From positions 10,639 through 74,638 of the forward strand of contig UQVR01000002.1 in the NCBI GenBank assembly GCA_900544625.1: a DNA stretch of 64,000 nucleotides. The letters run 5' to 3'. Made by a program: the position numbers and the translations under genes. This DNA comes from an uncultured Mycoplasmatota bacterium (lineage in GTDB: Bacteria; Bacillota_I; Bacilli_A; RF39; UBA660). Below are positions 23,167 through 56,760 of the stretch, in pieces (position 1 is the stretch's first letter; each line of letters opens with the position of its first letter). The notes below the pieces were generated by a model. The model saw only the letters and a list, made by a program, of their open reading frames with translations, ran no database searches and was not told the DNA's origin.

Positions 23167-23673
23167 CTAATAATAATATTTAAAATTATTCTTTTCTCTT
23201 CCCAATGTACTTTTAGGTCCATGACCAGGATAAATAACTATATCATCGGGGTATTTACTAATTTTTTCTAAACTTTTTATCATATCTATATCACTACCAG
23301 TATCTAAATCGGTTCTTCCAATAGAATGATAAAACAAGAAATCGCCAGTAAACATAACTTTTTCATTTTTAAAATAAATACTTCTACTATCACTTGTATG
23401 ACCTGGAGTTTCAATTACTTCATATTCAAAGATACCACTTTTAACATTTTCTTCAAGTTTAAAATACTTCTTTAACTCATCCAAAGCTCCAATATGGTCA
23501 AAATGATGATGAGTAACAATTATCTCCACAACATTTTTACCCTTACATGCATCAATTATTCTATCAGCTTCATCACCCGGGTCAACAATAAAAGCATTAT
23601 TTCCAATACTACAAACATAACAATTTTCTTGCAAAGCGCCAACAACTAACACTTTAATATCCATATACATCAC
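23167..23673 (-). CDS. MBL-fold metallo-hydrolase (compact)
   Basis: THHHFDH zinc motif, PGHT, and GD later in the sequence. The start may be MDIKV at 23664. Confidence 0.8.
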   Translation of the reverse strand: MMYMDIKVLVVGALQENCYVCSIGNNAFIVDPGDEADRIIDACKGKNVVEIIVTHHHFDHIGALDELKKYFKLEENVKSGIFEYEVIETPGHTSDSRSIYFKNEKVMFTGDFLFYHSIGRTDLDTGSDIDMIKSLEKISKYPDDIVIYPGHGPKSTLGREKNNFKYYY

Positions 23674-32308: not shown

Positions 32309-32617
32309 CTATTTAATTCTTAACTTTTTTAAACATCTTTTAATTAACATAGAGCACTTATCATACAAAATCATCATAAAAATATAGCCCACTAAAACAA
32401 CAGCAACAAAATACGGATGTATCATTCCAAAATTAACTTTATACATAACATAAATATATAAAATCACCATATCTATAACAAAAACTAATGTTACCAACAA
32501 CTTAATAACATTATTTTTATTAATTAACATATATTTATTAAATCTTGTAAATAAATAAAATATTATTCCATATATAAAAGATATCAAGAAAGATATTACT
32601 TGAATATAGCTATTCAT
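32309..32617 (-). CDS. yabQ: Spore cortex biosynthesis protein YabQ-like membrane protein
   Basis: Small three-TM protein overlapping the yabP stop. The call is based on synteny. Confidence 0.5.
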   Translation of the reverse strand: MNSYIQVISFLISFIYGIIFYLFTRFNKYMLINKNNVIKLLVTLVFVIDMVILYIYVMYKVNFGMIHPYFVAVVLVGYIFMMILYDKCSMLIKRCLKKLRIK

Positions 32618-32889
32618 TTAAACAATTTTGTTATAATACTTTCTTCTTTATTTTTAGTTTTACCATCAATATACATAAATGAATTAATCTTCCCTTTAAT
32701 CTTTACATTTCCATCTACAGTGTCTAATTTTAATAATTCAAGACCATTACCTAATATTCTTAAATTTCCCATTACCGTTTCCATCAAAAACTCTTCATCA
32801 TCAAAACTAACTATTTTATTAACACCATTTATACTAATATTATTTCTATCAACAATTTTTACTTCCTGTGTTCCAAAACTAGCTTCTCC
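32614..32889 (-). CDS. yabP: Sporulation protein YabP
   Basis: Pattern I.INGV..I.SFDDEE...ET..G.L.I.G..L....L....G.V.I.G.I. Start trimmed to MGEASF at 32889. Confidence 0.75.
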   Translation of the reverse strand, partial: GEASFGTQEVKIVDRNNISINGVNKIVSFDDEEFLMETVMGNLRILGNGLELLKLDTVDGNVKIKGKINSFMYIDGKTKNKEESIITKLFK

Positions 32890-32935
32890 CATTAATATCA
32901 CCAATAAATAATATGAAAAAAATAGACAGAATATT

Positions 32936-33409
32936 CTATCTATTTGATACATGTCTATTTAAAGATAAATCATTTAATTCTACTAGTGGATTTTCTGCTC
33001 CTAAATGATCTACATAAGCCGCCATTCTTTCCTTTACTATACTTTCTGTCGCTGATTTTCTATAAGGTTTTAATGCAGCATCTAAAGATTTTTGAACCAT
33101 TAATGAACTAACCCATGGAATAACAATATCTCCATCTTCTAAAAACTCATATTTATCTGTGCCTGGAAAATAAATAACTCCAACTGCTCCTAGTTTTTCA
33201 TATTTATTTTTAAATACTTCAAGATTTTTTACTCCAATTGCATGAGCATTAACACTATTGTTTAAAATATCCTCTAATGAGAATTCCAATCCAACATATA
33301 TTTCTTGAATAAAAGTATATCTTCCATCAAATGATATTACTTTTGCTCCCTCAAGAACTTCTTTTTCACTTTTATCTTTTCCATAAACATATTGTATACT
33401 ATATAACAT
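32936..33409 (-). CDS. Hypothetical protein (157 aa)
   Basis: Intact ORF between spoVG and yabP. No motif recognised. Confidence 0.5.
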   Translation of the reverse strand: MLYSIQYVYGKDKSEKEVLEGAKVISFDGRYTFIQEIYVGLEFSLEDILNNSVNAHAIGVKNLEVFKNKYEKLGAVGVIYFPGTDKYEFLEDGDIVIPWVSSLMVQKSLDAALKPYRKSATESIVKERMAAYVDHLGAENPLVELNDLSLNRHVSNR

Positions 33410-33508
33410 AAATAATCACTCCTTTTTTAGCGACAGATCTAATTATATAACACATATACATTATATGTCAAGGACAAAATTTTATGAAATTACAAACAAA
33501 AAAGTTAA

Positions 33509-33784
33509 CTATTCGCTAACTTCTTCATTTAATATTCTATTATATTCATCTAAAATAACTTTTTCAAATTTTTCTCTAGTTTCTTTGTTTGTAGGGAAAA
33601 CGACATTTTCTTCTTTACCATCTTTATTTAATTTACCAGGCATAGAAACAAACAATCTTGAATTTCCTTCAATTATTTTAGCTCCTCTTATAGCTAAACA
33701 GTCATCAAGTGTAAAATCTACAAACGCTTTTAATCTTGAACCTTCTTTTTCTCTTCTGTAAACCTCTAGTCTTGTTATTTCCAT
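33509..33784 (-). CDS. spoVG: Septation/sporulation regulator SpoVG
   Basis: MEITRLEVYR...LKAFVDFTLDDCLAIRGAKIIEG...FVSMP is the typical SpoVG fold sequence. Confidence 0.93.
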   Translation of the reverse strand: MEITRLEVYRREKEGSRLKAFVDFTLDDCLAIRGAKIIEGNSRLFVSMPGKLNKDGKEENVVFPTNKETREKFEKVILDEYNRILNEEVSE

Positions 33785-33861
33785 AATACTACCTCCTTAT
33801 GTTGTTTTACTACCTTAATTTTAAAACATAATTATCATTTTTGCAACAAATTTTTTTAAAT

Positions 33862-34074
33862 TTATAAATAATTTATTTTTACATCACCAGTTATAACATC
33901 TCTATAACAAAAACTTTTTTCTTCTCCATCCACTAATACTGTAAAAAGATTAGGATACGTTTTATATAATATTCCTTCTAGTTTGTTAACTCTATTACGC
34001 ATTCCATACACAGATACTAATACTTTACTATTAAGTTTGTTATTTATTTCATTTTTTATTATATTAATATTCAT
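33862..34074 (-). CDS. veg: Veg protein
   Basis: 70 aa with G.R......G.L...YP.LF.V, as in Veg. Lies next to yabG as in Bacillus. Confidence 0.8.
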   Translation of the reverse strand: MNINIIKNEINNKLNSKVLVSVYGMRNRVNKLEGILYKTYPNLFTVLVDGEEKSFCYRDVITGDVKINYL

Positions 34075-34083
34075 AATTTCTCC

Positions 34084-34911
34084 TTATCTTGGATATCCCA
34101 CATACATAAGACCATTACAAATAAGACCTCCCATACCATCTTCTTTATATTTAGTTTTTTCAAGTAATTTCTTTAAATCGATTTCCTTATTTCTTTCTGT
34201 TAAAGCTATGGTACTAGCTATAATTGCAGGATCTAAGGCGTGAATATTAACTCTTTTAGGGCTCGACGCAAAGTTAGCACCAGCTTTTATTAGCTCTTCA
34301 TAATCACTTTGGCAAGCTCCAGCAATAACAACTAACTTTTCATGACTTTTTTCATAGTTTCTAGCAGTCTTAACAGCTTTTACAAAATAAAGAGAATTTT
34401 TATAATTATTTATATCTTTAGCATCACCTTTTTTTCTATAATAAGCATCATGTCCAGTAATTATAACAATATCAGGTTTAAATTCTTTTAAAAGCATTGG
34501 TAATTGTTCATAAACATTTTTTTCATTTATCTTTTTACCAATTCCCATAATACCATTTTTTTTATAAAACTTTAAACATCTCGATAAATACTCTTCATCT
34601 GAATCGATATGTAGAACTTTTGCTGGCAAATAAAAAAACTCTCCTCGATCAAGATTATCATCTAATAAATCAATATCATCTATTACATTATCTTCATTTA
34701 TATTTTCCTCTTTTCTTAAATCAGTTACTTCAGCATCCGCAATTAATCTTACTTCAACACCTTTTAAATAATATACACCATTTTTAATATTAATAACTTT
34801 AAAAACAGTATCATTATCATAACTGTTTCTAGTTACATAATCACCCTTTTCTATATTCAAAATATATATCACCATTAAATAATATGCTACAACAAAAAAA
34901 AGAATTCTCAT
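34084..34911 (-). CDS. yabG: Sporulation-specific protease YabG
   Basis: VLHIDSDEEYL, PDIVIITGHDAY and GACQS motifs. The true start is probably downstream of the first Met. Confidence 0.8.
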   Translation of the reverse strand: MRILFFVVAYYLMVIYILNIEKGDYVTRNSYDNDTVFKVINIKNGVYYLKGVEVRLIADAEVTDLRKEENINEDNVIDDIDLLDDNLDRGEFFYLPAKVLHIDSDEEYLSRCLKFYKKNGIMGIGKKINEKNVYEQLPMLLKEFKPDIVIITGHDAYYRKKGDAKDINNYKNSLYFVKAVKTARNYEKSHEKLVVIAGACQSDYEELIKAGANFASSPKRVNIHALDPAIIASTIALTERNKEIDLKKLLEKTKYKEDGMGGLICNGLMYVGYPR

Positions 34912-37144: not shown

Positions 37145-38660
37145 TCCTATTAAATAGTATTTCCGGTTTATTTAAAGTAATTCCACACTCTAAATTACCA
37201 AATTCATTAATACTTTCAATACTTCTTTCATTTGTATTAAGTTCATTTAATATTTTTTCACTTGTTACATTAATAAACGGTTCAAGAAGTATTGCACATA
37301 CTCTAATACTTTCTAAAATATTATATAAAACAGTTTTTAATCTATCTTGCTTTGCTTCATCTTTAGCAAGTATCCATGGAGTCGTTTCATCGATATATTT
37401 ATTACATCTTTTTAATACTTCAAATATTTCTTCTAAAGCCTCATTAACTTTTAAACCATCCATTTTTTCATCGACTTTTATCTTTAAGTTTGTAACGGCA
37501 TCAATTAAGTCATTATCTATCTCTTCATTTACTTTTGGATTTTCTACCACCCCATCAAAGTATTTGTGACTCATACTTATAGTTCTATTAACTAAATTTC
37601 CTAAATTATTTACTAAATCTGCATTTGTTCTATTAATTAATGCTTCTTCAGAAAAATTACCATCACTACCAAAAGATACTTCTCTTAGTGCAAAATATCT
37701 AACTGCATCAACACCATAAGCATTAATATATTCTCTTGGATCTTTGTAATTTCCTAATGATTTAGAAATTTTTCCACCATTTATAATTAACCATCCATGT
37801 CCAAACACTTGGTGAGGTATTTCAATTCCTAAAGCCATAAGAAGTGCTGGCCAAATAATTGCATGGAACCTTGTAATTTCTTTACCTACTAAATGTAAGT
37901 CAGCTGGCCAATATTTTTTAAATAATGGTGCATTTTCATCTGGATATCCTAAAGATGTAATATAGTTTGATAATGCATCAATCCATACATAAATTACATG
38001 TTTTGGGTCAAAATCTACAGGAATTCCCCATTTAACCGAAGTTCTTGATACACATAAATCTTCAAGACCAGGTTTAATGAAATTATTTACTAGTTCATTT
38101 TTTCTTGAAACTGGTAAAATAAATTCCGGATTCTTATCATATAATTCAACTAATTTATCTTGATATTTAGATAATCTAAAAAAGTATGCTTCTTCAGTAA
38201 CATTTTTAACCTCGCGACCGCAATCTGGACATTTACCATCAACAAGTTGAGTTGCTGTCCAAAATGATTCACAAGGAACACAATATAGTCCTTCATAAGA
38301 CCCCTTATAAATATCCCCTTGGTCATATAATTTTCTAAATATTTTTTGAACAGCTTTAACATGTGATTCGTCAGTAGTTCTAATAAAATAATCATATGAA
38401 ATGTTTAAACTTTTCCATAAATTTTTAGCATTTTCGATTATAACATCAACATATTCTTTTGGCGTTACACCAGCATCCTTAGCTTTTTGTTCAATTTTAG
38501 CTCCATGTTCATCAGTTCCAGTTTGGAAAAACACATCGTATCCATTTAATCTTTTATATCTTGCAATAGCATCTGCAATAATAGTTGTATAACAATGTCC
38601 AATATGAAAATCAGCACTTGGATAATATATTGGTGTTGTTATGTAATATTTTTTATTCAT
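37128..38660 (-). CDS. metG: Methionine--tRNA ligase (short form, no C-terminal tRNA-binding domain)
   Basis: HIGH motif (ADFHIGHCY), KISKS (KMSKS-type), CPDCG zinc knuckle. Confidence 0.95.
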   Translation of the reverse strand: MNKKYYITTPIYYPSADFHIGHCYTTIIADAIARYKRLNGYDVFFQTGTDEHGAKIEQKAKDAGVTPKEYVDVIIENAKNLWKSLNISYDYFIRTTDESHVKAVQKIFRKLYDQGDIYKGSYEGLYCVPCESFWTATQLVDGKCPDCGREVKNVTEEAYFFRLSKYQDKLVELYDKNPEFILPVSRKNELVNNFIKPGLEDLCVSRTSVKWGIPVDFDPKHVIYVWIDALSNYITSLGYPDENAPLFKKYWPADLHLVGKEITRFHAIIWPALLMALGIEIPHQVFGHGWLIINGGKISKSLGNYKDPREYINAYGVDAVRYFALREVSFGSDGNFSEEALINRTNADLVNNLGNLVNRTISMSHKYFDGVVENPKVNEEIDNDLIDAVTNLKIKVDEKMDGLKVNEALEEIFEVLKRCNKYIDETTPWILAKDEAKQDRLKTVLYNILESIRVCAILLEPFINVTSEKILNELNTNERSIESINEFGNLECGITLNKPEILFNRIEINE

Positions 38661-39150
38661 TTTCTCTTCCTTCTTTCTTTTTATTTGTGCTACCTATACC
38701 ACCAGTTCTAAGTGTTTTAACATTATCATCATCAGTTGTTAAAAATTTAACGAATATCCCTTGAGCATAAGCATCACCCTTATTTATTATATATTCTTTA
38801 TCACCATGATTTTGTAAACATACCCACATATGGCCTTCATTATCACGATTATTATAATAATCACTTTCAATAATACCTACTTGATTAGTAAGCCTAACAT
38901 TATATTTGAAACCCACACTACTTCTTACCACGATCATAAGCATTTCATCACTTTCAAAAGTAGCCTTATAGCCAGTTGGTATCTTCACAATCTCATTAGG
39001 TTTAATAACATAATCTTTTATGGCAAAAAAATCATAACCTGCACTACATTTCGTCCCTCTTAAAGGGAGCATATAATCATCATACAAAGTTTTATTATCT
39101 CCAAAAACTTTAACAAATTCAGGATAACTTATTTTTTCAAACTTTCTCAT
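38653..39150 (-). CDS. dut: dUTP diphosphatase (trimeric dUTPase family)
   Basis: GTKCSAGYDF, VRSS, GIIESDYY, RTGGIGST motifs. Start set at MRKFEK (39150) after RBS ggagga, because the tracked N-terminal extension overlaps the T-box. 8-nt overlap with the metG start. Confidence 0.85.
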   Translation of the reverse strand: MRKFEKISYPEFVKVFGDNKTLYDDYMLPLRGTKCSAGYDFFAIKDYVIKPNEIVKIPTGYKATFESDEMLMIVVRSSVGFKYNVRLTNQVGIIESDYYNNRDNEGHMWVCLQNHGDKEYIINKGDAYAQGIFVKFLTTDDDNVKTLRTGGIGSTNKKKEGRENE

Positions 39151-39162
39151 ATTTCCTCCAAC

Positions 39163-39375
39163 AAAAAAATCATAAACTAAGGACGAGTATAACCCGCGGT
39201 ACCACCTTAATTCATGATTTATCATGCAACTTAAAAATTTATAACGTAATTACCCGATCTTAACTCCAGAGCCATATTCGAATATCTTCATTTTTTCTTT
39301 TCCACCAACCAAGAAATCTCTATGAAACGAATGATACCTACTCTTTCCTTCCTCGCTAAACTAAACATAGTTTAC
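39163..39375 (-). ncRNA. T-box leader (probable Met specifier) controlling dut-metG
   Basis: The - strand carries AGAGA...TGGTTGGTGGAA (stem I motifs) and candidate AUG-A specifiers. The T-box sequence AATTAAGGTGGTACCGCG follows, then a long imperfect helix and T7 immediately before the dut RBS. Confidence 0.8.
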
Positions 39376-47162: not shown

Positions 47163-48761
47163 TTATTCTACTTCTATTTTATTTATATCAAATATATCTG
47201 CAACATCAGATATATCAATATTACTATTTATCTTTTCTTTGGTTTCTTCAATTAAAGTATATTTATAACCACTCTTCAAATTGTTTATATACTCTAATTT
47301 TTCTTTTTGCCATTTATTCTCATCTATAAAAACAAATTTATACTTGAAGTTATACTTTTTATTAAATAAATCTTCAAATAAATCAATTTTTGCATTTAAT
47401 TCTATATCACCATGAGGAATTGTTACTTCCATAATAGCATAATCATTTGATGCTGCAACCACTAATGTATCTGTAACTATTCCTTTTATTAAAGCATCAT
47501 CTAAATTATTTATAAACTCATCCCATTTATTTTTCATTTCGTTTAAATTGTTTTTGGTTGCTCCTACAAAACAATTATTTATTCTAATATCAACACTTTT
47601 ATTATCTGCGCTTATATTTTCAAAAGCTTCTATTCTATGATTTTCAATATTTTTTGATAATTTAGCATCAAATTTTTCTATTTTTTTTGGCATTTCAACT
47701 TCATTATTTTTAAATTCAATATTATTATTAAACTTAGCATTTTCTATATAACTTAGAATAAGCATTTTAATAATTAAATATGGATTAACACTAATATTTA
47801 TTTTCATTAATATATTATTTAATTCAATAACCATTTTTTTATAATCATCAAAAGATAGTCTAGAAACTTCTGGATTGGATAAAACCTTAACACTTTTCTC
47901 ACTTAAAATAAGAATTAATTTTTTAATAAACACTTTATAATTCAAGTTTATACTTTGTAAATCGTTAAAGAATTTTTCTATATTGTCTATATCATTTTTA
48001 TCTAAATATATTAAAAGATCTTCAATTTTTTTATTTGATATACTTCCAATTTCTTTTGAAACTAGAGCACTAGTAATAATCTCTTCATTTTTGGATAATT
48101 GATCTAAAATACTTAAGGCATCTCTAAGACCTCCATCTGCCAATGTCGCTATTTCTTGTAACCCATCTATCTCATATTTTATTTTTTCTTCATCACAAAC
48201 AAACTTTAATCTATCAATGATATCTTGATCAGTTATTCGATGAAATTCAAATCTTTGACACCTTGAAACAATTGTTATAGGCACACTCTCTAAATTAGTC
48301 GTAGCTAATATAAATATAACATGTTCTGGAGGCTCTTCTAAAGTGAGTAACAATGCGTTAAAAGCGCTTTGACTTAACATATGAACCTCATCAATAATAT
48401 AAACTTTATATTTTAAACTCGTAGGCATTATTTTAACATTATTTATTAGTTCTCTTATTTCATCTACACCATTGTTTGATGCTGCATCTATCTCTATAAT
48501 GTCAGGATTTCCATTAAATGAAAGACAATTTTCACATTTACCACATGCAATACCAGTTTTATTATCTAAACAATTAATTGATTTAGCTAAAATTCTTGCA
48601 GTTGATGTTTTTCCAGTACCTCTTGGACCAGAAAATAAATATGCATGAGCTAATTTTTGTTCTTTTATAGAATTCTTTAATATATCGACAACATGTTTTT
48701 GACCTATTAACGAATCAAATCCATCTGGTCGATATTTACGATATAAAACTTTATAATTCAT
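47163..48761 (-). CDS. dnaX: DNA polymerase III subunits gamma/tau
   Basis: HAYLFSGPRGTGKTS, zinc module CGKCENC, IIDEVHML, SRCQRF. Confidence 0.95.
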   Translation of the reverse strand: MNYKVLYRKYRPDGFDSLIGQKHVVDILKNSIKEQKLAHAYLFSGPRGTGKTSTARILAKSINCLDNKTGIACGKCENCLSFNGNPDIIEIDAASNNGVDEIRELINNVKIMPTSLKYKVYIIDEVHMLSQSAFNALLLTLEEPPEHVIFILATTNLESVPITIVSRCQRFEFHRITDQDIIDRLKFVCDEEKIKYEIDGLQEIATLADGGLRDALSILDQLSKNEEIITSALVSKEIGSISNKKIEDLLIYLDKNDIDNIEKFFNDLQSINLNYKVFIKKLILILSEKSVKVLSNPEVSRLSFDDYKKMVIELNNILMKINISVNPYLIIKMLILSYIENAKFNNNIEFKNNEVEMPKKIEKFDAKLSKNIENHRIEAFENISADNKSVDIRINNCFVGATKNNLNEMKNKWDEFINNLDDALIKGIVTDTLVVAASNDYAIMEVTIPHGDIELNAKIDLFEDLFNKKYNFKYKFVFIDENKWQKEKLEYINNLKSGYKYTLIEETKEKINSNIDISDVADIFDINKIEVE

Positions 48762-48796: not shown

Positions 48797-49216
48797 TTAC
48801 TTTTTTTCTCTTAATTCTTTAAAAAAATTACTTAATATATCTAAATATTTTTGTTCTTCATTTTTTTTATTTATTTTTTCAAATTTAGTTTTATTAAAGT
48901 CTTTTTTTTCATCAGGTTTATCTAATAAATAATAAACATTATCAATTCTAGACTGTTTTATTATTTCTGCACACATTGAGCATGGTTTTAAAGACACATA
49001 CATATCACAACCACTTAAATTCCAGTTTTTTAAATTTTTTTGAGCCTTTAAAATACAATTTATTTCTGCATGCCCTAATACATTTTGATTTTTTTCTCTT
49101 GTATTACAGGCAGATGAAATTAAAACCCCATCTTTAACTATAATTGCTCCAATAGGTACATCCATTGAATTAAGCGATAACTTTGATTCTTCTATTATTA
49201 TATCTATATTATCCAT
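48797..49216 (-). CDS. tadA: tRNA-specific adenosine deaminase
   Basis: HAE and PCSMCA zinc motifs. Start set at MDNIDII (49216), 8 nt after RBS ggagg. Confidence 0.9.
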   Translation of the reverse strand: MDNIDIIIEESKLSLNSMDVPIGAIIVKDGVLISSACNTREKNQNVLGHAEINCILKAQKNLKNWNLSGCDMYVSLKPCSMCAEIIKQSRIDNVYYLLDKPDEKKDFNKTKFEKINKKNEEQKYLDILSNFFKELREKK

Positions 49217-49229
49217 AATATTTTCCTCC

Positions 49230-49311
49230 AAAAAAAAGTGCACACAAACATAGGCTGATGTGGCTGCTATTTTCCAATCCTGACCAAGTTACAGCATATT
49301 TGTTGCACGAG
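49230..49311 (-). ncRNA. ffs: Signal recognition particle RNA, minimal (helix 8 only) form
   Basis: - strand GTGCAACAAATATGCTGTAACTTGGTCAGGATTGGAAAATAGCAGCCACATCAGCCTATGTTTGTGTGCAC + U8. It contains GGUCAGG..GGAA tetraloop..AGCAGCC of SRP domain IV. The closing helix pairs end to end. Confidence 0.85.
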
Positions 49312-49314
49312 TAA

Positions 49315-49343
49315 ATCGTATCAAATATAAAGAAACATGTCAA
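49315..49343 (-). promoter_or_regulatory. Promoter of the SRP RNA
   Basis: - strand TTGACA (49343-49338), 17-nt spacer, TACGAT (49320-49315). The predicted start is a few nt before the closing helix. Confidence 0.55.
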
Positions 49344-49400
49344 TACTTTTTATTACATATATTCAAATTATATTTTTATATATTGTTTTAAATAATTTTG

Positions 49401-49409
49401 TGTTGATAA
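49401..49409 (-). promoter_or_regulatory. DnaA box variant TTATCAACA
   Basis: + strand tgttgataa. The same 9-mer is used repeatedly at oriC in this window. Confidence 0.5.
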
Positions 49410-49522
49410 CTTAAAATTGTTTATTATAAATATGATAAATTTTGGCTAATATATGCCTTAAAATAACAATAGGCAAAATAAAGTATAATTAAAATTTGCT
49501 AATTTTTATAAAAAACTTAAAT

Positions 49523-49538
49523 TATTTCCCGGGAAATA
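49523..49538. promoter_or_regulatory. Noc-binding site (NBS) palindrome, perfect
   Basis: TATTTCCCGGGAAATA. The palindrome extends to 20 bp (49521-49540). It contains the Bacillus NBS consensus ATTTCCCGGGAAAT. Confidence 0.7.
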
Positions 49539-49669
49539 ATTATTTTAAAAACTTTAAATTTTTCTTCTTTTCTTTTTATATTAAAAAAGTTCTTAATTCC
49601 TTTTATTACCTAGTACTTTTACAAAAAAATACATTATATATTTTTAATTAATATATTATGTTAACTAAA

Positions 49670-49685
49670 TATTTCCCGGGAAATA
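49670..49685. promoter_or_regulatory. Noc-binding site (NBS) palindrome, perfect
   Basis: TATTTCCCGGGAAATA. The palindrome extends to 20 bp (49668-49687). It lies 147 bp from the first copy. Confidence 0.7.
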
Positions 49686-49752
49686 TTACTTTTAAGATTT
49701 CATCAACATTTTACTCATTATTTGCAATGTTGCAAACGTATGTACGTCATAA

Positions 49753-49768
49753 TGTTTCACGTGAAACT
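49753..49768. promoter_or_regulatory. parS site 1 (15/16)
   Basis: TGTTTCACGTGAAACT versus the Firmicute parS consensus TGTTNCACGTGAAACA. Confidence 0.8.
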
Positions 49769-49868
49769 AAAATATAAAATTATATTTCATTTGTAAACGT
49801 ATAATTATTTTTTATTTACTAATTATTAACTATAAATAATTTCATATTCACATTTTATTAACATCAAT

Positions 49869-49884
49869 AGTTTCACGTGAAACA
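49869..49884. promoter_or_regulatory. parS site 2 (15/16)
   Basis: AGTTTCACGTGAAACA. TTATTAACA lies 5 nt upstream (49855-49863). Confidence 0.8.
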
Positions 49885-49997
49885 ATAAGCCTAATTTTTT
49901 TTATAATAATATAAATATAATATTTAATTAACAAATTAGAAACACAAAATTAAATATTTAATTGAAAAACATAACCTTTCAACAACTTATCAACATA

Positions 49998-50013
49998 TGT
50001 TTCACGTGAAACA
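49998..50013. promoter_or_regulatory. parS site 3 (16/16)
   Basis: TGTTTCACGTGAAACA. DnaA box TTATCAACA lies 2 nt upstream (49987-49995). Confidence 0.85.
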
Positions 50014-50129
50014 TAACAATATTGAGGTATTAAACATAAAAATAACAACAAAATTGAAATAATATTAATTTATAGTTGAATATTAATATTTATTTCATAT
50101 AAATAATATCAACAAGTTATCAACACAAA

Positions 50130-50145
50130 TGTTTCACGTGAAACA
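50130..50145. promoter_or_regulatory. parS site 4 (16/16)
   Basis: TGTTTCACGTGAAACA. TTATCAACA lies 4 nt upstream (50117-50125) and ATATCAACA lies at 50106-50114. Confidence 0.85.
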
Positions 50146-50347
50146 CAAAAGTAAATTATGGTTATGTATGAAATTTCTTAATTGAAATAAATAAAAATCA
50201 AATTAAGATAAATATAATATACAAAATTGTGTTTGAATACAAAAAAATATGATCATGTATTAAACATTGATTCAATTCCTTTTAAAAAAATATAATATCA
50301 TAAATTAATAATATTATTATAGTTGCAAATGAAAACTTATTAACATA

Positions 50348-50363
50348 TGTTTCACGTGAAACA
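50348..50363. promoter_or_regulatory. parS site 5 (16/16)
   Basis: TGTTTCACGTGAAACA. TTATTAACA lies 2 nt upstream (50337-50345). Confidence 0.85.
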
Positions 50364-50455
50364 AATAATATTATAAAAAGATATAATACTAAACAAAATA
50401 AATTAAATTTGATTTGATAATAATTAATAATTACATATACTCTATGTATAAAAAA

Positions 50456-50471
50456 AGTTTCACGTGAAACA
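50456..50471. promoter_or_regulatory. parS site 6 (15/16)
   Basis: AGTTTCACGTGAAACA. Confidence 0.8.
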
Positions 50472-50586
50472 ATTTTTTTTAAAATTAATTAATATACTAA
50501 TAATTATTGAATCTGCATATTTAAAAATAATTATTAAAATTTAACAATATACAAAGTATATACATAAGATAATTACTAAAAGAGAC

Positions 50587-53094
50587 TTATTCAGTCTCTT
50601 TTTCCTCGACTATAGCGCTTTCATTAGATACATTTTCACTCAAAGTGTTTAGTTCTTCTTCTGTAGATTCACTAACTTCTTCTTTTTCAACTAAACTTAT
50701 GGTTGATACTTTTTGATTATCCTTTAAGTTAATAAGTCTTAAACCTTGAGTTACACGTCCTAATAATGATATTTGATCTAAAGGCATTCTCATTGTCATA
50801 CCTGAATTAGTCATTATAACTAGTTCTTGATTATCTTGAACAATTTTAACACTAACTAAACTTCCGTTTTTATCAGTTATATTCATGGCTTTTACACCTT
50901 TTGATCCTCTTCTTGTTTGACGATATTCACTTACTTTAGTTTGCTTACCATAACCTTTTTCTGTTACTAATAAAATTGTATCATCTTCTTTAACAATTTC
51001 AGAACAAATACATTTACTTCCATCCAATGAAATCCCTCTGACACCTGAAGCTGTTCTACCCATAACTCTTATTTCATCTTCATTAAATTTAACCATTCTA
51101 CCGCTATCGCTACCTAGAAGTACTAAATCATTACCTGTTGTTTTTTTAACATCAATTAATTTATCATTTTCTCTTAAAGAAATACAAATCTTACCACTAT
51201 TTCTAATATTAGAAAATTCACTAATTAATGTTTTCTTAACAACTCCACCTTCTGTAGCAAATAATAAATATTTACATTCTTCTTCACGATTAATTTCAAT
51301 AATAGCATTAACTCTTTCATCTTTTTCCACTTGAAGTAAGTTAACAATTGGAATTCCTTTAGACTGACGAGAAAATTCTGGAATTTCGTAACCTTTAAGT
51401 CTATATACCTTACCTTTATCAGTAAAGAATAAAATATAATCATGTGTTGATAAGTTAATCATGTGTTCTACAAAATCTTCATCATTCGTAGTCATTCCCT
51501 TGATTCCAACACCACCACGGTTTTGTGATTTAAAAGTGTCTGACGTAGTTCTCTTAATATAACCCTTGTTAGTAAGTACTACCAAGATATTTTCTTCTGG
51601 TATTAAAGATTCATCTTCAATATAATCAACTGCTGTCATATCAATCTTAGTACGTCTTTCATCACCATATTTATTTTTAATTTCAGTCATTTCATCTTTA
51701 ATGATACCTAATACCTTATTATTATCCGCTAAAATGCCACGTAAACGTTCAATTTCGATTCTGAGTGCATTTAGTTCATCTTCAATTTTTTCACGTTCTA
51801 GACCCGTTAAACGACGTAATTTCATTTCTAGAATATTATCAGTTTGAGCTTCAGTTAATCCAAAACGTTCCATTAACTTGGATTTAGCTTCTCCATCAGC
51901 TTTTGATTCTTTAATAATCTTAATAACTTCATCAATATTATCAAATACAATTTGATAACCTTCTAAGATATGCACTCTTTTTTCTGCTTTATCTAATTCA
52001 AATTGAGTTCTTCTAATAATAATTTCTTGTTGATAATCTACATATTTACTAATTATATCTTTCAAACCTAGTGTTCTTGGAACCCCTTTATCAAGCATTA
52101 AGAAAATAATACCAAAAGTTGTTTGAAAAGCAGTATGTTTATACAAATTATTTAAAACTACCTGAGGATTTGCATCCTTTTTTAAAGTAATAGTTATTTT
52201 AATACCATCTTTTAAATCAGTGTGATAATCAGTAATACATTCAAGTACTTTATTATGTACTAAATCTGCTACTTTTTGTTTTAAATCAAGGGTATTAACA
52301 CCATAAGGAACTTCTTCGATAACAATATAATGTCTTCCATTTTTTTCTTCAATTGTTGCTTTACTTCTAATAGTAATTGATCCTCTACCAGTTTCATACG
52401 CTTTTTTAATTCCAGAATTACCTAAAATAATACCACCAGTTGGAAAATCAGGCCCTTTAACATGTTGCATTAATTCTTCCGTAGTAATTTCAGGATTATC
52501 TATATATGCAATACAACCATCAATAACTTCACCTAAATTATGTGGTGGAATATTTGTTGCCATACCAACAGCAATACCCATTGTTCCATTAACTAAAATA
52601 TTTGGAAATCTTGAGGGTAAAACTTCAGGTTCTTCAGTTGAATCATCATAATTTGGTACAAAATTAACCGTATTTTTATTGATATCTCTTAAAAGTTCCA
52701 TAGATATCTTAGCAAGTTTACTTTCAGTATAACGATAAGCGGCTGCTCTTGGATATTCAATATTACCAAAGTTACCATGTCCATCAACAAGTAAATAACG
52801 ATAATTAAAGTCTTGGGCCATTCTTACCATAGCCTCATAAATTGATGAATCTCCATGAGGATGATATTTCCCCATAACGTCCCCAACTATCGTCGCACTC
52901 TTACGATGTTTTTTATCTGGTGTTAATCCATTTTCTAACATATCATAAATAATTCTTCTATGAACTGGCTTTAAACCATCTCTTAAATCTGGTAAAGCTC
53001 TGGAAATAATAACACTCATTGAATATTCAATAAAAGAAGATTCAATTTCACTTACTATATTATTTTCTTCTAGTCTATCTCTACTATGATCCAT
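50587..53094 (-). CDS. gyrA: DNA gyrase subunit A
   Basis: [16 protein letters not shown], active-site region AAYRYTE, C-terminal beta-pinwheel repeats, acidic tail. Confidence 0.97.
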
Positions 53095-56237: not shown

Positions 56238-56666
56238 TTATCCTCGTGTTAAATACACTAACCACAACCTACTACATTTTAAAAGTTGATTATTAAACTT
56301 CGTAGGGGTTATACTAAAGCATTTTTTTTCACCATTTTTAAACAAAACAACAATACCATTCTGACTCTTTTCATAGTTTTGCACTTTATTAAAATTAAGC
56401 CAATAATAGCTTTTTTCTTCTTTTATTGGAAAAAAGATTATATTATTCTTTTCACTTATCATAATTGGTAACTTATAACAACCACCAAGAATATTTTTAC
56501 TTCCCATAATTCTTCCCTTCAAAGAACTACCATAATAAATACAACTAAAATTTAATATAGAATTTAATAAATTACCCCCAAATTTTAATTGATTATCTTC
56601 TTCATGAACAATAGTATTTTCGCCATTAAATTCCATAAAAAGAGTATTATTATTAATTTTAAACAT
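56238..56666 (-). CDS. comK: ComK-family transcription factor homologue
   Basis: SCIYYGSSLKGR..G......YKLPIMISEKNNIIFFP...W.......V.F.NG....I....F.NQ aligns by eye with the Bacillus ComK core (SCRFFGSSYAGR...HKPPIMVDPSNQIFLFP). Start set at MFKINNN after RBS aaggag. Confidence 0.75.
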   Translation of the reverse strand: MFKINNNTLFMEFNGENTIVHEEDNQLKFGGNLLNSILNFSCIYYGSSLKGRIMGSKNILGGCYKLPIMISEKNNIIFFPIKEEKSYYWLNFNKVQNYEKSQNGIVVLFKNGEKKCFSITPTKFNNQLLKCSRLWLVYLTRG

Positions 56667-56723
56667 TTTAATTCTCCTTTCTTGATTTGCTATAATAGCA
56701 AAACTTTTATAAAAAATTTGTCG

Positions 56724-56760
56724 AAAAAAAAAGAACAAGTTAATATTTTGTTCATTTTTT
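56724..56760 (-). terminator. Rho-independent terminator after dnaN
   Basis: gaacaa/ttgttc stem flanked by A9 and T-runs. Confidence 0.65.

Follow-up and report, generated by a model that had tools for sequence, protein, structure and literature searches.

The gene-free spacer between gyrA and the signal recognition particle (SRP) RNA gene ffs in an uncultured Mycoplasmatota bacterium carries six consensus parS sites and two exact Noc-binding sites (NBS), and we think it reasonably probable that it is a composite origin-proximal centromere, at which ParB loads at parS and a Noc-type paralogue at the NBS. The analysis concerns a stretch of 64,000 nucleotides of contig UQVR01000002.1, called the window in the following. 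The organism is abundant in the human gut and known from metagenomes only. The six parS sites almost certainly form an origin-proximal centromere, and two related DNA-clamp proteins probably load there side by side. ParB and Noc are the textbook case of a duplicated pair of DNA-binding proteins with separate site preferences and separate jobs, namely segregation and nucleoid occlusion. The elements of the spacer are:

49313-50586: gene-free spacer of 1,274 bp with 16.5% G+C, containing two NBS and six parS sites; the proposed composite centromere
49523-49538: NBS-1, exact 16-bp Noc-binding-site core TATTTCCCGGGAAATA; invariant in 12 strains
49670-49685: NBS-2, exact TATTTCCCGGGAAATA; separated by 147 bp from NBS-1, its centre being 83 bp away from that of parS-1; invariant in 12 strains
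49753-49768: parS-1, TGTTTCACGTGAAACT, 15/16 matches, 14-bp core exact; invariant in 12 strains
49869-49884: parS-2, AGTTTCACGTGAAACA, 15/16 matches; one outer column varies or is gapped among strains
49998-50013: parS-3, perfect TGTTTCACGTGAAACA, preceded by TTATCAACA at 49987-49995; invariant in 12 strains
50130-50145: parS-4, perfect TGTTTCACGTGAAACA, preceded by TTATCAACA at 50117-50125
50348-50363: parS-5, perfect TGTTTCACGTGAAACA
50456-50471: parS-6, AGTTTCACGTGAAACA, 15/16 matches; two columns variable among 12 strains

The 14-mer GTTTCACGTGAAAC occurs six times without any mismatch in the 64 kb (at 49754, 49870, 49999, 50131, 50349 and 50457), the expectation from shuffled sequence (n = 100) being zero. 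Compared over 16 bp, three of the sites are perfect copies of TGTTTCACGTGAAACA (49998, 50130 and 50348) and three match at 15 of 16 positions (49753, 49869 and 50456), with spacings between neighbours of 116, 129, 132, 218 and 108 bp. Positions, split and centre-to-centre spacings are those given in a preliminary description of this DNA, and its assignment of the sites to the palindromic parS consensus TGTTNCACGTGAAACA is supported by the exactness of all six 14-bp cores. No further parS site was found in the window at up to two mismatches, nor were other parS sites found in sampled 10-kb flank contigs on both sides. The "10/16 decayed copy" proposed at 50230 is at chance level, since seven 16-mers of the spacer score at least 10/16 against 3.5 ± 1.9 in shuffled sequence, and two of these seven are the NBS. 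The non-coding location was borne out, as 49313-50586 holds no open reading frame (ORF) above 51 aa and no gene is called in the spacer across 12 strain contigs. A non-coding RNA or a small ORF was rejected as an explanation of the spacer, because Rfam gives the SRP RNA at the edge only and no ORF exceeds the length just mentioned. A scan for intrinsic terminators gave no hit by its criteria.

The array lies 8.9 kb from dnaA and a DnaA-box cluster, where the GC skew also flips, in agreement with the distance of about 9 kb from oriC given earlier. It is therefore origin-proximal in the same sense as parS sites in general.

Within the species, the sites are better preserved than the DNA between them. 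In an alignment of 12 strain spacers, 108 of 1,372 columns are variable, but only 3 of 128 within the motifs versus 105 of 1,244 in the rest of the spacer (p = 0.0095). Both NBS and four of the six parS 16-mers are free of any variable column, and all six exact 14-bp parS cores are kept in 10 of 12 strains. The preliminary description had left it to be checked whether relatives keep the array at the same position, and they do, between gyrA and the deaminase-dnaX genes. The order gyrB-gyrA-[parS array]-deaminase-dnaX-ybaB-recR was found in 17 loci of low-GC metagenome-assembled genomes (MAGs) labelled as Bacilli, Tenericutes or Mollicutes, with GyrA proteins 61-79% identical to that of the window (the closest being Candidatus Onthocola with 79%). 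When genome and metagenome loci are taken together, the position is conserved across relatives whose GyrA identity ranges from 48 to 79%. The array has a fixed place on the chromosome and is inherited vertically, and over 100 species-level lineages of uncultured low-GC Bacilli carry it there.

As an array of parS sites, it is of a known kind, as dense parS sites are common on chromosomes. When one genome per species was searched for pairs of parS cores separated by 90-120 nt, at least 120 loci matched. Among the matches listed these span Actinomycetota, Chloroflexota, Bacillota, Alphaproteobacteria, the candidate phyla radiation (CPR) and others, and at least four cores within 1 kb are present in 39 of 120 and at least six in 9 of 120. 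One CPR chromosome (Candidatus Paceibacterota, L078:1474-1842) has a parS-only array of seven sites within 370 bp. Clustered origin-proximal parS sites have already been reviewed, with up to 20-23 sites (PMC7333895; PMC7022226). They are ParB nucleation and SMC-loading sites, of which one is often enough, so that arrays are redundant (PMC7333895, PMC7022226, PMC4368675), and why parS sites cluster is listed as an open question (PMC7333895).

The clusters of P. aeruginosa (parS1-4), S. coelicolor and L. innocua (20-23 sites) and C. glutamicum likewise consist of multiple consensus sites near oriC. Unlike those, the array of the window is not located beside parAB but occupies a dedicated spacer downstream of gyrA, which it shares with NBS. 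The 16-bp consensus TGTTNCACGTGAAACA of the Spo0J/parS system of B. subtilis is identical to that of the window, and B. subtilis also shares the gene order at the origin (dnaA-dnaN-recF-gyrB-gyrA and jag-mnmE-mnmG-rsmG-noc). However, B. subtilis has about ten dispersed parS sites, many of them intragenic according to the preliminary description, whereas six are packed into a spacer region of 720 bp here, and soj-spo0J is absent after the noc position in the species of the window.

The preliminary description had regarded a dedicated intergenic array as unusual and as plasmid-style. This view did not hold, since dense arrays exist in many phyla and the position between housekeeping genes is conserved. 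Plasmid centromeres made of iterated repeats, such as sopC of F, adjoin their own parAB operon and use plasmid-specific repeats. Like the array described here they are composed of tandem sites in non-coding DNA, and this superficial resemblance, together with 37 viral contigs that carry parS pairs at 90-120 nt spacing, is what can be said for the insertion of a centromere from a plasmid or mobile element into the chromosome. The 37 loci (IMG/VR, L264-L300) are, however, all that the same search returned from 2.9 million viral contigs. Moreover, the array uses the chromosomal parS consensus, genes for partition, replication or mobility are missing from its neighbourhood, neither composition nor GC skew breaks at its borders, and the position between housekeeping genes is conserved in at least 114 sequence clusters. 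Neither an own parAB operon nor a mobile replicon is recognizable, and a mobile-element origin was rejected on account of the conserved synteny, which leaves this explanation with a negligible probability.

Both NBS palindromes were overlooked in the preliminary description. The two copies are exact, TATTTCCCGGGAAATA being the NBS core used in Noc biochemistry, as TGTTTCACGTGAAACA is the parS core (PMC8429893). No other NBS was found in the rest of the window or in the sampled flank contigs of about 10 kb on both sides. The hexamer CCCGGG occurs only three times in the 64 kb (23576-23581, 49528-49533 and 49675-49680), and the latter two occurrences are within the NBS.

The window is a looser version of a mixed arrangement in its relatives. 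At least 120 metagenome loci were retrieved in which 6-36 nt lie between a parS core and an NBS core. Among the matches listed, these loci have 18.5-38% G+C, and gyrA, the deaminase gene or dnaX lies beside the array in 116 of 120. Together with the genome loci and the window they represent at least 114 clusters at 90% nucleotide identity. In a circular 1.5-Mb MAG (L024), six NBS and six parS sites alternate strictly with a unit of 126 bp, and another relative (L022) has seven NBS and five parS sites with a unit of 63 bp. The highest count among the matches listed is nine parS and nine NBS (L236). In two further loci (L092 and L106) parS-NBS pairs are just 23-25 bp apart and have unrelated flanks. 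Several relatives have perfect NBS 16-mers interspersed between their parS sites, and the outer T..A is present in 320 of 321 NBS cores among the matches listed.

The distances between the centres of adjacent parS and NBS sites peak at 25-26, 35-36, 47-48, 58, 68-69 and 78 bp, so that they recur about every 10.5-11 bp and fall on half-integer turns of the helix (both among the matches listed). None of 5,000 uniform nulls reached the observed periodicity when each sequence cluster was counted once. These peaks indicate helical phasing of parS and NBS in the relatives; the NBS/parS pair of the window is loose, so that the evidence for phasing is drawn from the relatives. Interleaved and phased parS/NBS arrays with a helix-less Noc-type subfamily were not found described in a literature search.

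Two other arrangements were noticed among the relatives. Next to the last parS site of the Candidatus Onthocola array (L102:2960-2975) there is AGTTTCCGTGGAAACT, a near-palindrome that mixes parS- and NBS-type bases, and a parS-only array of a Bacilli MAG (L083:5384-5895) consists of ten sites at an exact period of 55 bp.

A candidate reader of the NBS is encoded across the origin. Same-species contigs that were reached via the Jag protein of the window extend 10 kb past the window end and contain, in this order, jag, two helix-turn-helix genes, a 644-aa gene, mnmE, mnmG, rsmG and a ParB-family gene of 382 aa (L121:17509-18657), the sole gene of this family within 10 kb of the window. It is followed by a 107-aa gene and then by a penicillin-binding protein gene on the opposite strand. 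The usual continuation after jag, which had been described as missing, is hence present just past the window as far as mnmE-mnmG-rsmG and a ParB-family gene are concerned; that no soj/spo0J follows was correct. There is neither a parA nor a second parB beside the ParB-family gene in the same-species contigs, and no soj/spo0J next to the paralogue in three relatives, where it has the same gene neighbours.

The best structure matches of the 382-aa protein are to Noc (7nfu with 197 bits and 7ol9 with 182 bits), ahead of Spo0J (6sdk, 173 bits). At the four specificity positions 173, 179, 184 and 201 it has Q, K, T and R, i.e. three of the four Noc residues (QKKR) including K179, whereas Spo0J of B. 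subtilis has R, H, T and G. It has been shown that Q173 and R201 together with one lysine at position 179 or 184 give NBS specificity, with Q173 recognising the A and R201 the C that distinguish NBS, and ParB orthologues are stated to have R173 and G201 without exception (PMC7383237). From these residues the protein is predicted to read NBS and not parS. The CTP-binding motifs (GERRFKA and ENIQRKDL) are kept.

The 382-aa protein lacks the N-terminal amphipathic membrane-targeting helix of Noc. In alignments to the PDB entries it starts about 20 residues later than Noc, and with the end of rsmG 40 nt upstream an N-terminal extension would not fit. The median number of residues before the PNRFQPR box is 16 in the family, compared to 39 in Noc of B. 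subtilis, counted from its N-terminus. Noc function requires the N-terminal membrane-targeting helix of 10 aa (PMC8429893), and because the paralogue has no such helix, classical nucleoid occlusion is an unlikely task for it. In the AlphaFold model (99 homologues), residues 10-204 make up a confidently modelled N-terminal and DNA-binding region of the ParB type, residues 205-335 are a disordered linker, and a small C-terminal domain of one helix plus two strands follows.

An exhaustive search returned the 150 nearest clusters at 50% identity (P0121-P0270). They share the build of the 382-aa protein, in that the N-terminus is short and the linker long and variable (median length 434 aa). Q-K-(N/S/T/A)-R stands at the specificity positions in nearly all of them, and R173 is present in none. 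By these sequence features, the 382-aa protein belongs to a large uncharacterised Noc-type subfamily. A motif N[KR]FFNFLE[DE]E is present in the disordered linker of 59 of 151 sequences, compared to 1.3 expected in shuffled tails, and corresponds to residues 278-288 of the 382-aa protein. It loosely resembles the N-terminal sequence FSRFFGLGEKE of Noc and is perhaps a membrane- or partner-binding peptide that has changed its place. The linker and its conserved motif suggest that the paralogue recruits some other partner.

In comparison to the Noc-NBS system of B. subtilis and S. aureus, the exact NBS core TATTTCCCGGGAAATA, the location of the paralogue gene directly after rsmG, the Q173/K179/R201-type recognition residues and the CTP-binding motifs are shared. 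The differences are the missing membrane helix, N, S or T instead of K at position 184, the long disordered linker with NKFFNFLEDE and, within the approximately 84 kb inspected of a genome of at least 1.26 Mb, the concentration of the NBS in the parS array.

For the six parS sites, the cognate protein was searched for by tblastn with the Noc-type protein and with Spo0J of B. subtilis as queries, and with the window, the flank loci and the 120 metagenome array loci as targets. As had been described before, there is no ParB homologue in the window. The preliminary description had held that a genome without any ParB would contradict its interpretation; a ParB-family gene is present, but it is of the Noc type, and a canonical ParB was not found in the approximately 84 kb. 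Since none turned up in the sequence read, the parS reader is assumed. A canonical ParB is likely encoded elsewhere in the genome, because perfect consensus parS sites are kept in more than 100 lineages. A similar organization is known from S. aureus, where Noc is encoded after rsmG, ParB elsewhere, and ParA is missing (PMC5540599, PMC7333895). No ParA-type gene was found among the called genes of the flank contigs or beside the paralogue in the three relatives, the genes of the window being partly annotated. With no parA seen in them and with parS near oriC, the window and its flank contigs resemble the ParA-less ParB-parS-SMC systems of S. pneumoniae and S. aureus. Unlike in the lineage of the window, mixed parS/NBS arrays have not been reported for these two species.

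Several observations weigh against a composite centromere. Tight pairs of NBS and parS are missing from the window, where 83 bp separate even the closest two, and the parS-only arrays of several relatives (L083, L020, L030, L094 and L118) mean that NBS are not obligatory. Shared ancestry of the arrays may inflate the phasing statistics. The 382-aa protein scores 273.7 bits with the NCBIfam Noc model TIGR04285, which is below the cutoff of 315 and therefore outside the family as defined there, and the match spans only profile positions 2-202 of 255. The prediction of its specificity relies on four residues whose effects were examined in the scaffold of a Caulobacter ParB. Finally, a canonical ParB with R173 and G201 was found neither in the window nor in the flank contigs of about 10 kb nor in 728 kb of related array loci.

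The first two of these points would also fit an ordinary ParB centromere, with the two NBS, which lie at one end of the array and at least 83 bp from the nearest parS, being just ones of many genome-wide Noc sites that happen to be located in a long AT-rich spacer and have no link to parS. We consider this rather unlikely, as no other NBS is present in the window or the sampled 10-kb flank contigs, as NBS recur in the same spacer in more than 100 lineages and are interleaved there at helically phased distances, and as the Noc-type protein is devoid of the helix that nucleoid occlusion needs (PMC8429893).

The failure to find a canonical ParB in any sequence read, and the fact that the species and three relatives have one ParB-family gene at the classical locus and never soj/spo0J after it, could alternatively mean that the Noc-type QKxR protein is the sole ParB-family protein and reads both sites, NBS strongly and parS more weakly. 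In favour of this, a deep mutational scan contained some NBS binders with weak-to-medium binding of parS. However, variants with Q173/R201 favoured bases of the NBS type, and no known ParB departs from R173/G201 (PMC7383237). In addition, the maintenance of two distinct perfect palindromes next to each other speaks for two readers, parS sites of perfect consensus would be unlikely to persist if no cognate ParB existed, and the inspected DNA is only a small part of the genome. Therefore, we give a single reader a low probability.

What the data show directly are the sites with their conservation and synteny, the type of the paralogue, and the repeated occurrence and phasing of parS-NBS pairs in relatives. 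For the composite centromere, which protein binds which site, the loading of the clamps, the role of SMC and any coupling of the two proteins are inferred. By analogy with ParB proteins studied so far, a canonical ParB encoded elsewhere would nucleate on the six parS sites, close as a CTP-dependent clamp, slide to the flanking DNA and recruit SMC, which would then organise and separate the new origins. No ParA is visible nearby, a situation also known from S. aureus and S. pneumoniae. On the ffs side, the two NBS would load the Noc-type paralogue from the gene after rsmG, about 20 kb away across oriC, so that both types of clamps would coat the same 1-2 kb beside the origin.

It is possible, although we propose it only tentatively, that ParB and the helix-less Noc-type paralogue go further and form a hybrid partition complex, in which both are co-loaded on interleaved and phased parS and NBS sites and act together. 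Such a complex could, for example, couple origin segregation to division or to the control of replication via the NKFFNFLEDE motif in the linker. A centromere-bound Noc branch might then even be ancestral and precede the gain of the amphipathic helix. In its extreme form, this idea converges with the single reader discussed above, in that the Noc-type protein would be the only ParB-family protein and read both sites. If a hybrid complex exists, this branch of Noc proteins would have a role at the centromere rather than in genome-wide nucleoid occlusion.

Irrespective of this, more than 100 lineages keep both site types together and in phase at a single fixed locus. In combination with a Noc-type protein that has no helix, this suggests that the two paralogues can cooperate on one DNA. 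The lineage also lends itself to studying, in a natural setting, the evolution of Noc and the reason for the clustering of parS sites. Furthermore, the spacers are compact natural cassettes with both orthogonal loading sites and may suit locus labelling based on ParB and Noc.

A DnaA-box-like 9-mer, TTATCAACA, is located directly 5' of parS-3 (49987-49995) and parS-4 (50117-50125). In a survey of the loci of the lineage (L020-L263), such a 9-mer directly adjoins parS, with a constant offset of -11 on the plus or +16 on the minus strand, at about 40 of 476 sites (approximately 8%), and a box is present near parS in 18.5% of the sites versus 8.9% at random positions of the same arrays, an enrichment of about two-fold. 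These pairs, the location of the NBS about 210 and 360 bp upstream of ffs, and the finding that Noc of S. aureus restrains replication initiation (PMC5540599) would be compatible with palindromes that serve mainly in regulation or replication control, either as operators of the ffs-deaminase-dnaX operon or as a DnaA-box cluster that titrates DnaA, instead of as a centromere. Nevertheless, this is very improbable, because the motifs are exact parS and NBS cores, because the order and number of the sites and their distance to the downstream gene vary freely among the relatives, and because an abutting box accompanies so small a share of the parS sites.

The genes and other elements around the spacer are the following:

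47163-48761, minus strand: dnaX, after the deaminase gene and followed by ybaB and recR; conserved synteny block on the right-hand side
48797-49216, minus strand: gene of the cytidine/tRNA-adenosine deaminase family, 139 aa as called
49232-49312, minus strand: SRP RNA (ffs), downstream flank of the array; Rfam RF00169, 54.1 bits
49343-49315: promoter-like TTGACA-17-TACGAT for ffs, from a promoter scan
50587-53094, minus strand: gyrA, upstream flank of the array; NCBIfam NF004043, 1133 bits
58012-59355, minus strand: dnaA
59461-59630: DnaA-box cluster upstream of dnaA; the switch of the GC skew at this point marks oriC

All genes of this region are on the minus strand, in the order dnaA, dnaN, a ComK-domain gene, recF, gyrB, gyrA, the spacer, ffs, the deaminase gene, dnaX, ybaB and recR. 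The ComK-domain gene between dnaN and recF (56238-56738, minus strand, 142 aa as called) is found at the same place in a relative whose Noc-type protein is 47% identical (L143). At this place Bacillus has the S4-like gene yaaA.

On the other side of the origin, a gene for an AAA_14/DUF4143 ATPase (446 aa) is inserted directly after jag in two of the same-species contigs (L122 and L123, 10766-12106) and absent from a third (L121), so this insertion is strain-variable within the species. Further away from the array, there is a T-box leader at 39176-39362 on the minus strand (Rfam, 104.5 bits), which overlaps the 5' end of the longest ORF of the downstream gene (38653-39225). The window also encodes YabP, YabQ and YabG (32309-34911, minus strand), and SpoIIR is encoded in relatives (L140, L142 and L143). 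The occurrence of these sporulation genes in a very low-GC uncultured gut lineage with a longest contig of 1.26 Mb suggests a spore former with a small genome.

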